A DNA stretch of 40,808 nucleotides from a virus. Its lineage: Duplodnaviria; Heunggongvirae; Uroviricota; Caudoviricetes. Below, in pieces: positions 4,351 through 7,793 of this stretch. Every line of letters begins with the position of its first letter. Positions within the stretch are counted from its first letter, which is position 1. Both the position numbers and the translations under genes were made by a program. The stretch is from the IMG/VR virus record IMGVR_UViG_2778261545_000004; one strand, written 5' to 3'. Below the pieces are notes generated by a model. It was not told the DNA's origin. It did no database searches and saw nothing but the letters and a program-made list of their open reading frames with translations.

Positions 4351-4415
4351 AATAAGTCCTCACTATATAAAGATATTCAGTGATGAGATAAATAATCAGT
4401 TAATTAAAAACGATA

Positions 4416-4778
4416 TTAACGACCTGCTGCGCGGAGTTTTCCGTCAGGTTCACCGGCAAGAGTCAGTAACTGTCCCTGGTCTTCCTGCAGAATAGTCAGG
4501 CGACCACCGCGATTGACATACATCGGCGTTTCGGTGGTGTCTTCTTCGGAAATTTTCCCGCGGTTAGTCGGGCGAACATATGAGAGTTTGTGTTTGATTT
4601 TCACACGGTTCTCATCAAATGGTTCGATTTCCAGGTTGAGTGAGACCTTACCTTTGGTTTTCGTGTTCATCACACCGGAAGCGACTTCACTGAGAACTGC
4701 GCCGATTTTGGTTTCAAATACGCCGCCGTCCAGCTCCCCGATAAATGCCTGCACATCAGTACTGCGTTCGCTAGCCAT
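4416..4778 (-). CDS. YfdP-like small prophage protein
   Basis: 120 aa from ATG 4776-4778 with GAGGAG 7 nt upstream; the ORF-track extension to 5096 is rejected. Confidence 0.5.
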   Translation of the reverse strand: MASERSTDVQAFIGELDGGVFETKIGAVLSEVASGVMNTKTKGKVSLNLEIEPFDENRVKIKHKLSYVRPTNRGKISEEDTTETPMYVNRGGRLTILQEDQGQLLTLAGEPDGKLRAAGR

Positions 4779-4789
4779 TTTGCTGCTCC

Positions 4790-5110
4790 TCATCATATCG
4801 ACCCTGCAAGGCCGATTAGTTTCTCCACAAAACAGAGAAGAACACCTGCGGTGGCAGCCGCCCGGATGGATTGGGTTATGAGCCCGTCGTCCGGTGATGC
4901 TCTTCTCTGTTTTGTAAAAAGGACGGTACCAGCCGGAAGCAAGGGTACAAACTGGTACCGCCAGGACTACACACAGCATAAAGTTGTGGTGCCGGGTGCC
5001 TCCCGGTGCCTGGCGAAGGTTGCACACCAGGCGGGTGGGTATCCACAGAAGGTCGACTGTCAGCCTCAACCTTAACCCGCGTGCGCTGAGCCGCATTCAC
5101 CACAACGCTA
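4790..5110. other. GC-rich non-coding block with nested perfect inverted repeats (candidate structured RNA or DNA element)
   Basis: 14-bp perfect inverted repeat CAAAACAGAGAAGA / TCTTCTCTGTTTTG (4827-4840 and 4901-4914), 9-bp inverted repeat CGGTACCAG / CTGGTACCG (4924-4932 and 4952-4960); ORFs open in several frames but none protein-like. Confidence 0.3.
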
Positions 5111-5179
5111 AGGATTCTCTCTGGTTGAAAATACTTAGCTGTTATGTGCCTGCTTTTAGCCACATCAGGCGAGGTGGAC

Positions 5180-5231
5180 CTGGTTATTCCCCAACAACAA
5201 GGATTCGGTTAATCTGGTTATCCCCAACAAC
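5180..5231 (+). repeat. Direct repeat pair CTGGTTAT(T)CCCCAACAAC upstream of the 5247 moron
   Basis: Copies at 5180-5198 and 5214-5231, 34 bp apart, 15-65 nt upstream of the ATG. Confidence 0.6.
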
Positions 5232-5246
5232 GCAAAAGGAAAAGAA

Positions 5247-5681
5247 ATGTCCGGTAATATCTATACGCTGTACAAATCCCACTGTGAAAATGTTGGAAAG
5301 TATCGGGGCATTGAAATCAGTGGGGTAGTGTCATCAGTCGAAATAAGCAAAGTTGAATCAAGGGCAACATTACTTACTCTTTTGGACCTTGTCTTACATG
5401 AGCACCGGAAGAAATTCGGCACTCCCTATAATCAGTTGAATGGGAAAAAGGCTCTGGTTCACCTTATTCTGATGAAGCATCACTGGATGCCAAAACAGAT
5501 TAATGAGATGAAATTTGATGAACTTCTTCTTTCAATTCAGGATGAACTCACACTTGATAAAATAAGCGTAACCGCCCAGAAATTTTTAGATTATCGAGAC
5601 TGGAGATCACAAATTCATCACTTTGATGATTTTGACGAAAATGAATGGGATCCTAATTTGTCTGCACAATATCTAAAGTAA
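5247..5681 (+). CDS. Hypothetical protein, 144 aa (opposite-strand moron in the early-left region)
   Basis: AAGGAAAAG RBS, AT-rich, transcribed against the leftward early operon; no family recognised. Confidence 0.55.
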   Translation: MSGNIYTLYKSHCENVGKYRGIEISGVVSSVEISKVESRATLLTLLDLVLHEHRKKFGTPYNQLNGKKALVHLILMKHHWMPKQINEMKFDELLLSIQDELTLDKISVTAQKFLDYRDWRSQIHHFDDFDENEWDPNLSAQYLK

Positions 5682-5859
5682 CATCCTGTGATAAAACCGT
5701 GATTTCCTGATCCAGTTTTTTTAAGGAGTCTATTGTTTCCTGTCGATAAGACAGCACTTCACGAAGCTGGTTTATAGCTGCCAGCTTCTTTGTCATCCAC
5801 TCATAAATTTCCTCATCTGTGTAGCCAGGCGCGACGATTTTGGGTTCTGTTTTGTGCAT
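5653..5859 (-). CDS. Small hypothetical protein, first gene of the leftward early operon
   Basis: 68 aa from the ATG preceded by AGGAG with 7-nt spacer; convergent 29-nt overlap with the 5247-5681 gene. Confidence 0.4.
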   Translation of the reverse strand: MHKTEPKIVAPGYTDEEIYEWMTKKLAAINQLREVLSYRQETIDSLKKLDQEITVLSQDVTLDIVQTN

Positions 5860-5918
5860 TTCACATCTCCTCAAGTTATCAGTTACTTGTTGATGGGGAC
5901 CAGATTGTTAAAGAGCTA

Positions 5919-5945
5919 AGCGTCCTGTAGGGCGCTTTTTTGTTG
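5919..5945 (+). terminator. Rho-independent terminator-like hairpin with T6 tract
   Basis: AGCGTCC-TGTA-GGGCGCT followed by TTTTTTGTTG; more stable on plus strand (G-U pair). Confidence 0.4.
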
Positions 5946-6107
5946 CTAACGAATCATCCTGGACTTCATATGCCCCAGGCGGCTACTTCGTGGGCGTCCT
6001 GCCTGTTCGTTTTTGACATTTACTGACTGCTTACGACACATGCACCGTGTTGCAACCAGATTTTGTTGTAATCCTGTAGTTGGTCTGGAACAAAAGATAA
6101 AATTAAA

Positions 6108-6143
6108 TTGCGAGATATGCAAGTGATATTTGCGAGATATGCA
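6108..6143. promoter_or_regulatory. OL-like operators: two copies of TTGCGAGATATGCAA
   Basis: Identical 15-mers at 6108-6122 and 6129-6143, centres 21 bp apart, between the repressor 3' end and the leftward genes. Confidence 0.45.
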
Positions 6144-6152
6144 AATTTATAG

Positions 6153-6178
6153 GTAATAAAAAGCCACCTTTCGGTGGC
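6153..6178 (-). terminator. Rho-independent terminator downstream of the repressor gene
   Basis: On minus strand GCCACC-GAAA-GGTGGC followed by UUUUUAUU, immediately after the stop at 6199. Confidence 0.6.
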
Positions 6179-6198
6179 CGATGGATGGGATATTGAGG

Positions 6199-6891
6199 TT
6201 AATTATGTCTCTTAAGGGTTTGCGACTGACTGATTAAGACCTTTCCAAAGACCATGAATCGGTGTTCGTTTTCGCTAGTAATTCCCCATTCACGGTAAAT
6301 CTGGTTATCAGAAATCACCAGCAGTTTGTCAGGAATCATTTGAAGTCTTTTAACGTATATTTTGTCATCAAAACCAAAGACATATATACCATCACCATCA
6401 AACTGATTGATGCTGACATCAACGAAGATGAGATCTCCTGGCTCAATGGTTGGACACATACTGTCCCCACGAACGTTGATAACTTTGATGTGATTGGCTG
6501 GTCGTCCGCCGAACATTGATACAGCATTATCAGTTCTGTATTCGATGGCATGAATCACATCAATGACATCACCGCCCTGGATAAGGCCATTTCCCGCACT
6601 GGCACTGATATCCAGCATTTCAATACGGAACACATCCTTCACCTGCGCAACATCCTCATTATTACTGTTTTTATATACAGTATTACTTTTGTGGGCAGAG
6701 GTAAAGAGATCAGCAATATCAACACCTAAGCTCTTGGCAATATTACTCAGTGTTTGTTCGGTAAATTGTTTTTGCTTACCCGTTTCTAAGCGCGAGATGT
6801 TCGCCGCATCTACTCCTATCGCTTCAGCGAGATCGGCGATTTTCATGTTCTTCGCTTGGCGAAGTTGTCTGACTCGGTTTCCTATGTTCAT
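6199..6891 (-). CDS. CI-like prophage repressor (HTH domain plus S24 LexA-like autopeptidase domain)
   Basis: 230 aa; N-terminal HTH, C-terminal peptidase region with the conserved Ser (GDSMCP) and Lys (VKRL); divergent from a Cro-like gene. Confidence 0.9.
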   Translation of the reverse strand: MNIGNRVRQLRQAKNMKIADLAEAIGVDAANISRLETGKQKQFTEQTLSNIAKSLGVDIADLFTSAHKSNTVYKNSNNEDVAQVKDVFRIEMLDISASAGNGLIQGGDVIDVIHAIEYRTDNAVSMFGGRPANHIKVINVRGDSMCPTIEPGDLIFVDVSINQFDGDGIYVFGFDDKIYVKRLQMIPDKLLVISDNQIYREWGITSENEHRFMVFGKVLISQSQTLKRHN

Positions 6892-6911
6892 GCGTTTATT
6901 ACATTTCTTTA

Positions 6912-6974
6912 TTGCGTGATAAGCAAATCAACTTGCGCAAAATAATTGCGTGAAATAACATGCATAACGCGCAA
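6912..6974. promoter_or_regulatory. OR-like operator region between repressor and cro
   Basis: TTGCGTGATAAGCAA (6912-6926) and ATGCATAACGCGCAA (6960-6974) share the TTGC-N7-GCAA architecture of the OL copies. Confidence 0.45.
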
Positions 6975-6988
6975 TATTTGGAGGGCGT

Positions 6989-7249
6989 ATGCAATCACCA
7001 TTACGAAATGTGCGTAAGGCGCATGGTTTCACTTTGCAGCATGTTGCTGCGGGTGTTCAAATCAATCCAGCGACGTTGAGTCGTATTGAGAGGCTGGAGC
7101 AGATTCCATCTATCGAGCTTGCAGAACGTTTAGCCAATTTTTTTAAGGGTGAAGTCAGCGAAATGCAGATTCTTTATCCGGCACGTTTTCAATCTAGCCA
7201 AAACCAGAATGGGTTTAAACCACAGGAACAGGAGGTGAACCGTGGGTAA
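6989..7249 (+). CDS. Cro-like HTH transcriptional regulator
   Basis: 86 aa, HTH (GFTLQHVAAGVQINPATLSRIER), divergent from the repressor; GGAGG upstream. Confidence 0.8.
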   Translation: MQSPLRNVRKAHGFTLQHVAAGVQINPATLSRIERLEQIPSIELAERLANFFKGEVSEMQILYPARFQSSQNQNGFKPQEQEVNRG

Positions 7250-7793
7250 GCATCACTGGAAAGTAGAAAAACAGCCTGAGTGGTACGTGAAAGCTGTCAG
7301 AAAAACTATCGCAAAGTTGCCGGGTGGTTACGCTGAAGCAGCTGACTGGCTGGATGTAACAGAGAACGCATTATTTAACCGCCTTCGTGCCGATGGCGAT
7401 CAGATTTTCCCGCTGGGATGGGCAATGGTTTTGCAACGTGCTGGTGGAACTCACTTCATTGCTGACGCTGTGGCGCAGTCTGCAAATGGCGTCTTTGTGT
7501 CTCTTCCTGATGTCGAGGATGTGGACAACGCCGATATCAACCAACGCCTGCTGGAGGTCATTGAACAGATCGGCAGTTATTCAAAACAGATTCGTTCAGC
7601 AATTGAAGACGGTGTAGTGGAACCGCATGAGAAGACAGCAATTAACGACGAGCTGTACCTCTCAATTTCGAAGCTGCAGGAGCATGCAGCACTGGTCTAC
7701 AAAATCTTTTGCGTTTCAGAAAGTAGTGACGCCCGCGAGTGTGCAGCTCCGGGCGCCGTGGCGTGTCGTGACTGTGGAGAAACTAACGCATGA
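7242..7793 (+). CDS. Early regulatory protein (CII-like / YmfL-like)
   Basis: 183 aa, GTG start with AGGAGGTGA upstream, overlaps cro stop; position immediately after cro. Confidence 0.55.

Follow-up and report, generated by a model that had tools for sequence, protein, structure and literature searches.

A probable portable frame of direct and inverted repeats with a ribosomal-type boxA around exchangeable, backwards-oriented genes of Escherichia coli prophages

In a stretch of viral DNA of 40,808 nucleotides (nt; IMG/VR record IMGVR_UViG_2778261545_000004, Caudoviricetes), here called the window and numbered from its first letter, a plus-strand gene of 144 amino acids (aa) lies against the leftward early operon and follows a closely spaced pair of direct repeats. 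The original prediction described the gene as a moron and proposed that the repeats are regulator-binding sites or an element in its 5' untranslated region (5'-UTR). The repeats are real, but their scope is wider than this one gene. At least five unrelated families of payload genes follow the same repeats, which have a matched inverted copy beside a boxA of the type found in ribosomal RNA (rrn) operons, and it is therefore very probable that they belong to a portable frame and are not sites specific to the gene. With regard to function, the best overall explanation combines the portable frame with a mechanism that we infer for the strand of the early-left promoter pL, and we give this combination an even chance of being correct. 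No description of the frame was found in the searchable literature, a scope outside which most subscription journals lie.

The cassette and its parts are as follows.
5178-5947: exchangeable cassette, consisting of left frame, payload, 68-aa gene and right frame (BLAST breakpoints 5177/5948)
5180-5198: direct repeat 1, CTGGTTATTCCCCAACAAC, 19 nt
5210-5215, plus strand: TAATCT, almost invariant between the repeats and the sole -10-like hexamer there (T1, A2, T6)
5214-5231: direct repeat 2, CTGGTTATCCCCAACAAC, 18 nt, which together with 5211-5213 forms the left arm of an inverted repeat (AATCTGG...)
5236-5240, plus strand: Shine-Dalgarno (SD) sequence AAGGA, 6 nt before the ATG of the payload
5247-5681, plus strand: payload gene, 144 aa, ATG start (from the list of open reading frames, ORFs)
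5653-5859, minus strand: 68-aa gene of the leftward operon (phrog_1744), with the ATG at 5859 behind GAGGAG taken as the start
5886-5906, minus strand: inverted copy of repeat 2, AATCTGGTCCCCATCAACAAG, the right arm of the inverted repeat
5905-5916, minus strand (pL strand): rrn-type boxA, GCTCTTTAACAA, a 12/12 match to the consensus GCUCUUUAACAA
5918-5943, plus strand: predicted intrinsic terminator of the payload strand, with a hairpin at 5918-5937 (8-bp stem) followed by TTTTTT

A conserved frame encloses exchangeable cassettes

The gene was found as predicted, with a good ribosome-binding site (RBS) and with a convergent overlap of 29 nt (5653-5681) between its 3' end and the leftward operon. 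The two direct repeats of 18-19 bp also proved to be near-identical: they differ by a single inserted T, their start-to-start distance is 34 nt, and their pattern has 2 matches in the window as compared to 0.00 expected from 100 shuffles. The inverted copy at 5886-5906 is a third copy, in addition to the two that had been noted. Its relationship to the direct repeats is captured by the motif TCCCCAWCAAC, which has 3 matches in the window, as compared to 0.08 expected, and none of 100 shuffles reached this number. The left half of the frame thus has the order repeat 1, TAATCT, repeat 2 and the payload's own RBS.

Comparisons with collinear phages define the cassette as a unit of exchange. The genomes of SfII, SfV and mEp460_4F5 match the window up to position 5177 and again from position 5948, with 96-99% identity in the flanks and unrelated DNA in between. 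Phage PhiR29_1 has breakpoints at 5231/5900 and shares positions 5178-5231, with both repeats, and positions 5900-5947, with the end of the inverted copy, boxA and the terminator, but carries a different gene inside. The replacement of 5178-5947 in the three collinear phages, the AT-rich composition and the plus-strand terminator support the label of a moron. Cassettes are swapped by recombination at sites that lie inside the frame or immediately beyond it.

An exact-pattern scan of IMG/VR for repeat 2 identified at least 120 contigs. In all of the contigs listed, repeat 1 is located upstream, and different RBSs and start codons follow repeat 2 at a distance of 8-20 nt; the right frame was found 520-905 nt downstream in nearly all of them. 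A second scan, which was anchored on the right frame, independently recovered the left frame along with variants of the left element. The frame encloses at least five unrelated families of plus-strand payloads: a coiled-coil/Zn-ribbon protein of about 170 aa (33 variants among the matches listed), the ECs1072 family to which the present gene belongs (8 variants), a two-transmembrane (2TM) protein of about 150 aa (25 variants), a four-transmembrane (4TM) protein (4 variants) and an 87-aa protein. None of the families could be assigned to a known family or to a recognised defence protein; matches of the other payloads to PADLOC profiles reached E-values of just about 0.004-0.06, including weak matches of the 2TM family to "2TM effector" (E about 0.01). 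Their position suggests that the payloads may have roles in superinfection exclusion or defence.

The frame was also followed through the orthologs of the present payload. Related loci were searched by protein alignment, which returned 100%-identical copies only, and the more distant orthologs were retrieved individually. The original prediction would be undermined by orthologous loci with an intact gene and no repeats; the frame is kept in all three orthologs, at 72%, 56% and 52% identity. In one of these loci (L403), the frame is located in a RecE-type backbone with no neighboring STnc100-like RNA (see below), and it therefore travels with the cassette. Tandem pairs of cassettes were observed in five IMG/VR loci (L025, L056, L081, L254 and L296), where a frame-type cassette is followed by a second block with another plus-strand gene.

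The right frame combines a boxA with a predicted terminator on the opposite strand

The right-hand element has the layout ...GGATATCCAGA / TTGTTAAAGAGC / hairpin. Only 0.16 matches to the boxA consensus are expected in the window even if one mismatch is allowed. The sequence GCTCTTTAACAATCTGGA corresponds to the rrn boxA plus flank of many Enterobacterales. A scan with the boxA-plus-flank pattern CTCTTTAACAATCTGG in one genome per species, for which 120 matches were listed, identified mostly the boxA of rRNA operons (TGCTCTTTAACAATCTGGAACAAGCTG...), in Yersinia, Serratia, Rahnella, Pectobacterium, Photorhabdus, Providencia, Aeromonas and Photobacterium, while one E. coli locus among those listed was the present prophage frame. 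The phage element is therefore identical to the rrn boxA and to six bases of the flank on its 3' side.

The boxA is the best-conserved part of the right frame and is kept in all payload families. Alleles that lack the repeats (SfII, SfV, mEp460_4F5, ST64B and 118970_sal3) also lack boxA and the inverted core. The boxA is located about 170-190 nt downstream of the operators and of the position at which we place pL, and the antisense RNA past boxA would measure 520-690 nt in payload families 1 and 3. In CRISPR arrays, boxA protects untranslated RNA (PMC7665894).

The terminator fold is more stable on the plus strand (-11.5 kcal/mol) than on the minus strand (-7.5 kcal/mol). A G.U pair of the plus-strand stem is a C x A mismatch on the minus strand, and the same asymmetry is found in most frames. 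The run of T and the strand asymmetry of stem and energy mark it as a predicted plus-strand intrinsic terminator for the payload. On the minus strand, the hairpin is located 1-3 nt 5' of boxA, and this order of hairpin and then boxA is a constant feature. Frames of the L009/L011 type have an unrelated hairpin without a run of T at the same place, and retain boxA and the right copy.

Conservation and pairing of the frame ends

A core of 12-13 nt is nearly invariant and common to both arms of the inverted repeat, which are (TT)AATCTGGATATCCCCAACAAC on the left and, as read on the minus strand, (CA)AATCTGGATATCC... on the right; outside this core, the right arm drifts (CCACAAC, CCTAACC, CTTTAAC and others). 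For 61 distinct pairs of left and right arms, the predicted duplexes have mean energies of -26.2 kcal/mol in the minus-strand RNA and -22.7 kcal/mol in the plus-strand RNA. True partners pair slightly better than mismatched partners (Mann-Whitney p=0.004 for the minus strand and 0.056 for the plus strand). In frames of the L258 type, both arms have changed together (CCTAATG / CCTATTA). The potential of the arms for pairing is real, and selection for pairing is weakly supported. An assignment of the strand from wobble counts and duplex energies was rejected, since the values lean towards the minus strand but are confounded by the G/U-rich composition.

Repeat 1 may form a weak hairpin together with positions 5199-5203, with a CCCC/GGGG loop and a predicted energy of -7.2 kcal/mol on the minus strand and -4.0 kcal/mol on the plus strand. 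Across 42 distinct frames, 88% of the alignment cells are paired on the minus strand, as compared to 37-67% in slid controls, and double changes, with both sides of the pair altered, were observed for 5 of the 10 pairs. In 38 of the 42 frames, a G.U forms the central pair; when read on the plus strand, this is an A x C mismatch.

In the most divergent frames (L403 and the L258 type), the direct-repeat relation is lost and the core TAATCTGGATATCC is kept. The spacing from GCTATT to CTGG is a constant 31 nt in three diverged types of frame.

Two other interpretations of the left frame were discarded. An ORF with a TTG start (4984-5328, plus strand, 114 aa; SfIVp35 in SfIV) extends through the STnc100-like region and, in a single frame, through both repeats, but a coding function was rejected, because indels of one nt in either direction between the upstream block and repeat 1 across loci leave no conserved reading frame. 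The annotation of PhiR29_1 carries a similar extension. Mimicry of the GcvB/AgvB type by the C/A-rich motif was also rejected; the seed, as judged by eye, amounts to 8 bp only, and AgvB is located at the pR' moron site and not here.

Location of the cassette in the early-left region of the prophage

The window represents an E. coli prophage of the SfIV/SfV/SfII/mEp460 group. Over positions 4780-6200, phages Kati, vB_EcoS-569R4 and SfIV match the window at 99% identity, and matches at 100% identity were found in several complete E. coli chromosomes. The flanks of the cassette were matched in 2817 of 5426 complete genomes. The cassette is located between a pL leader and an STnc100-like RNA, with the following features around it.
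4914-5136, minus strand: STnc100-like RNA (Rfam RF02076), full-length, 43.1 bits, E=1.2e-7, below the gathering score of 47
5146-5177: conserved block GCCTGCTTTTAGCCACATCAGGCGAGGTGG, which precedes frame-type and other cassettes alike
6108-6144: two exact copies, 22 nt apart, of the operator-like, near-palindromic 15-mer TTGCGAGATATGCAA, adjoining the terminator of the repressor gene on its downstream side
6199-6891, minus strand: S24/HTH repressor gene to the right of the cassette, with its own predicted terminator

The early-left genes are all encoded on the minus strand, and those leftward of the cassette encode YfdP-like, DUF2303/YfdQ-like and HD hydrolase proteins. This gene order, together with the repressor and operators in a lambdoid architecture, indicates by analogy that the minus strand would carry the pL transcript. 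The TTGCGAGATATGCAA pair is presumably the OL operators, overlapping with pL, which was placed by eye at about 6095-6122. Between pL and the cassette genes, the ORFs are only a 58-aa ORF with a TTG start, for which no family hits were obtained, and the 68-aa gene.

Several further observations were made in this region. About 65 nt just downstream of the pL position (5948-6014) are conserved at 87-99% across immunity types and in the Salmonella phages ST64B and 118970_sal3, with variable surroundings on all sides and an unremarkable fold (-18.2 kcal/mol, z=-0.6); this segment may be a leader signal of an early-left operon without N. No match to Rfam was obtained anywhere in the window at the gathering thresholds, and the STnc100-like RNA was the only match at E-value thresholds, with the repeats uncovered. 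The 3' end of this RNA is a minus-strand terminator hairpin, and the RNA is located directly downstream of the cassette on the pL path. Copies of STnc100 are expressed prophage small RNAs (sRNAs) of no known function, and elsewhere adjoin moron sites, such as 75 nt downstream of stx2. Within the STnc100-like gene, the sequence ATTCACCACAACGCTAAGGATTC (5095-5117) represents a third direct copy of the repeat, which is degenerate and identical to repeat 1 at 14 of 18 positions, and the 5' part of the RNA is therefore partly complementary to the plus-strand repeats. Finally, a very stable long hairpin on the minus strand (4820-4922; 25-nt arms, -51.2 kcal/mol, z=-8.0) is flanked by the STnc100-like terminator on one side and by the start of the YfdP-like gene (4778) on the other, and is kept in SfII, SfV and mEp460_4F5.

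The payload is an ECs1072 family protein with a conserved partner

The homology and structure searches that had been suggested identify the payload as a phage-associated protein of the ECs1072 family (NCBIfam NF033230; E=1.7e-46, 157.8 bits with a cut-off of 70), with residues 4-144 aligned to profile positions 2-142. RefSeq gives this name, which carries no function, to identical copies. The protein also fills phrog_5286 from end to end (E=1.5e-90). No match to Pfam was obtained for the payload, and neither the payload nor the 68-aa protein matched PADLOC profiles for anti-phage defence. A profile search of 1.84 billion representatives identified 76 clusters, in which the full-length members are stand-alone proteins of about 145-155 aa. 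The AlphaFold (AF2) model, which was built from four sequences only, is all-alpha (pLDDT confidence 78.5, pTM score 0.78), and a structure search with this model gave no fold match. The base composition of the payload is AT-rich, with a GC content of 0.34-0.43 at positions 5300-5699 as compared to 0.55-0.58 at 4700-5199. The sole evidence for expression of ECs1072 that we found is a microarray study from 2007, in which it was among the genes that changed in uninduced cultures of O157 Sakai (PMC2241611).

The likely start of the 68-aa gene is the ATG at 5859. Using tblastn, this gene was located beside ECs1072 orthologs in L405 (98%/82%), L404 (53%) and L041 (35%). The protein is coiled-coil-like. 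Down to 35% identity, the gene is a convergent partner of ECs1072 genes, and the 3' ends overlap in every case; the two form a conserved pair, which may be a two-gene module. Within the 68-aa gene, 82 nt past the stop codon of ECs1072, a strong plus-strand hairpin (5763-5788; -15.6 kcal/mol, z=-4.6) is followed by CTTCTTTGTC. It is kept in L405, but not obviously in L404, and may end the mRNA of the payload short of the right frame.

The upstream block and the promoter of the payload

The GCCTGCTTTTAGCCACATCAGGCGAGGTGG block is present in several backbones, even where the DNA further upstream differs, and is duplicated before each of the tandem cassettes. It can form two interleaved helices, for which 96.7% of the cells are paired as compared to 18-44% in slid controls, and three pairs show compensatory changes in two divergent sequences. 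The block could be a promoter or a structured RNA.

In alleles that lack the frame, the block is followed by TATCTT, TATCCT or TATTCT, as part of a fair sigma70-like sequence, TTCACC-16-TGgTATCTT. Next comes a variable hairpin with a 3' arm that abuts the SD sequence of the payload. Repeat 1 and AAGGA are located at exactly that position, which suggests that the pair of repeats may have arisen by duplication of a 5'-UTR hairpin/SD module. Consensus sequences for sigmaE, sigma32 and sigma54 were compared by eye, and nothing consistent was found.

A possible role of the frame in the leftward transcript

In the explanation that we prefer, the frame would allow the pL operon to carry a gene in reverse orientation. 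The payload would be transcribed rightwards, and the terminator in the right frame would stop its RNA before OL and pL. The pL transcript made after induction would meet boxA upon entry into the cassette, where NusB/S10 and other Nus factors would be recruited, and this complex would keep Rho from terminating across several hundred untranslated antisense bases. We lean slightly towards the view that boxA works as a Nus/anti-Rho element of this kind. The sequence just 3' of boxA, AAUCUGGAUAUCC..., could then pair with the complement of repeat 2 when this emerges at the far end, so that the antisense payload would be looped. The looping is modelled on the action of boxA and Nus factors for the RNase III stems that flank 16S and 23S rRNA, and a cut by RNase III would be possible. 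The downstream pL RNA would then have a new 5' side, at which the complement of repeat 1 would form a small hairpin with a GGGG loop. That the repeats act in the leftward transcript in this manner is a tentative proposal, and we consider it rather doubtful.

A broader version holds that the frame is a self-contained, strand-symmetric insulator, by which any small gene could be inserted backwards into a phage early operon. The rrn-derived boxA would load the Nus complex, which would take the adjacent 5' strand of the stem with it as far as the complement of repeat 2; looping out of the antisense payload would follow, probably with excision by RNase III, and the rest of the operon would start with a protective hairpin. 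We regard this version as unlikely.

A number of observations weigh against a role in the leftward transcript. The advantage of minus-strand duplexes is also present with mismatched partners, and is therefore largely an effect of G/U composition, and a long-range duplex is possible on either strand. Substitutions in the core are compatible with wobble pairing in about 8 events for the minus strand and 3 for the plus strand, as counted by eye, which is not a significant difference. The core of 12-13 nt is conserved in sequence and not covarying, which fits recognition by a protein as well. The stability of the repeat-1 hairpin is that of shuffled sequence (z=0.18), and RNAalifold retains just five of its pairs. 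Also, repeats 1 and 2 change in concert in some lineages: both repeats have CCCCAATAGT in L270, CCACAAC in L268 and CCCCAACGA in L255, and L254 is a further case; pairing with the right copy does not explain such concerted change. Plus-strand genes are found in SfII and 118970_sal3 with neither boxA nor repeats. Complexes on rrn-type boxA are not known to read through intrinsic terminators, and the STnc100-like terminator is located further along the pL path. On the side of transcription, a scan for the sigma70 consensus identified no plus-strand promoter-like site at 4400-7300, the -35/-10-like hexamers in the upstream block of the window are degenerate, and pL, the payload promoter and all RNA ends are positions that we infer.

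Alternative explanations

The repeats could instead be the 5' control region of the payload on the plus strand, with a C/A-rich leader (AAC AAC AAG) and a promoter in or near the upstream block. They would then serve as a translation enhancer or as Hfq/sRNA or standby sites, and repeat 2 and the copy before the terminator would close the mRNA into a panhandle. The constant distance of 8-20 nt between repeat 2 and the RBS in the contigs listed, the location of the right copy just upstream of the plus-strand terminator and the mean energy of the plus-strand duplexes are consistent with such a leader, as are the sigma70-like site and the SD-abutting hairpin of the frame-less alleles and the signal from ECs1072 in uninduced Sakai cultures (PMC2241611). 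In L020, L314 and L403, the next gene, which is divergent, is no more than about 120-130 nt away, and the promoter of the payload is therefore probably located there or just inside the divergent gene. However, the window has no convincing -35/-10 pair, and if TAATCT were the -10 element, the best-conserved part of the left arm (AATCTGG) would stay untranscribed. The hairpin of repeat 1 has A x C mismatches on the plus strand in most frames, the right copy and boxA are kept even where the right hairpin lacks a run of T, and the hairpin at 5763-5788 may end the mRNA before the right copy is reached. We consider a plus-strand leader unlikely to be the main role of the repeats.

The repeats could also be DNA-binding sites for a phage or host regulator of the moron promoter, with the inverted copy as a third site, for example for looping. 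Such sites would account for a core, AATCTGGATATCC, that is conserved without covariation and holds the palindrome GGATATCC, for the constant 31 nt between GCTATT and CTGG, for the joint changes of both repeats in L270, L268, L255 and L254 and for the presence of TAATCT between the repeats. On the other hand, the direct-repeat relation decays in L403 and the L258 type while the inverted core persists, and conservation of the right copy is partly due to its identity with the rrn boxA flank. Repressor operators in particular were rejected, since the repeats resemble neither TTGCGAGATATGCAA nor the OL half-sites. A cognate regulator would not fit into cassettes of this size, and the presence of the frame in different backbones (L403) would demand a host protein, for which there is no candidate. 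This makes binding sites for a regulator improbable.

Least probable of all is that the repeats have no function and represent a fixed tandem duplication of an ancestral 5'-UTR hairpin/SD module, with the frame as a homology handle for cassette exchange. Repeat 1 plus AAGGA does resemble repeat 2 plus SD without the start codon, the breakpoints are located inside or just outside the frame, and gene conversion between two copies at a distance of 34 nt would account for the concerted changes. However, the repeats hardly vary from one payload family, host or backbone to another, beside RBSs and payloads that are unrelated, where neutral sequence would have decayed, and a homology handle needs neither an internal duplication nor an inverted partner.

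Significance

Accessory genes that are oriented backwards in phage operons face two problems: their long, untranslated antisense RNA is open to Rho, and transcripts collide. A frame that solves both problems and also provides homology for swapping would, if our explanation is correct, explain why, across thousands of E. coli genomes, one and the same locus is occupied by many different small genes. It would also represent a natural use of the rrn-type boxA beyond rRNA, CRISPR arrays and suhB. In the broader version, which we regard as unlikely, a phage would reuse the RNA polymerase/chaperone mechanism of ribosomal RNA to neutralise antisense transcription through a swappable cassette. The motifs of the frame are in addition a practical search handle, by which at least five families of uncharacterised small proteins were retrieved.

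Comparison with known systems

In lambdoid phages, a moron (Juhala/Hendrix) is said to be an extra gene with its own promoter and terminator between conserved genes. Like morons, the cassette is present or replaced among otherwise collinear phages, deviates in base composition, has its own predicted terminator and is oriented opposite to the operon, and it may be expressed in the lysogen, as a published microarray signal suggests (PMC2241611). Unlike morons, it has a frame that is reused for at least five payload families, ends that are inverted repeats and a signal for the opposite strand, and no promoter was identified for the payload.

Hotspots of accessory and defence genes have been described in P2 and P4 prophages (PMC9122126). 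The cassette resembles these in its constant position among conserved genes and in the many alternative small genes, several of which encode membrane proteins, and differs from them in that a sequence-conserved frame surrounds each cassette, that cassettes are in tandem in some phages and that no payload is a recognised defence protein. Integron cassettes and terminal inverted repeat (TIR) elements are similar in that imperfect inverted repeats bound gene cassettes, in arrays of two in some phages. Yet the payloads have their own RBS and terminator, unlike integron cassettes, and an integron or TIR transposon was rejected, since the breakpoints (5177/5948 and 5231/5900) fall elsewhere than at the ends of the repeats, the cassette contains no recombinase, integrase or transposase, and there is no target duplication. 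The flanks of the arms also differ, with GGTT|AATCTGG on the left, where the flank is variable, and CCAGATT|GTTAAAG on the right.

The lambda boxA has the sequence CGCTCTTA, and the boxA of the cassette fits the rrn consensus instead. Similar to lambda nut, it is located downstream of pL in a lambdoid early-left operon, but the hairpin precedes boxA, in contrast to lambda, where a boxB hairpin comes after boxA and a cognate, arginine-rich N protein is encoded downstream, and the element moves with the cassette and not with the immunity region. No N-like gene was found between pL and the cassette, and neither the 58-aa TTG ORF nor the 68-aa gene matched the N family. Antitermination by rrn-type boxA and Nus factors is also used in CRISPR arrays (PMC7665894) and at suhB (PMC5725501). 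With the boxA of rrn operons, the cassette shares the 12/12 match and the identical 3' flank, a hairpin located 5' of boxA (the order boxB-boxA), a long, presumably untranslated RNA downstream and a distant complement to the sequence after boxA, which can be compared to the processing stems of 16S and 23S rRNA. It differs from rrn in its location, which is the entrance of an antisense cassette within the early operon of a prophage, and in a hairpin that doubles as the predicted terminator of the other strand. Morons, prophage accessory hotspots (PMC9122126) and boxA antitermination are all known.

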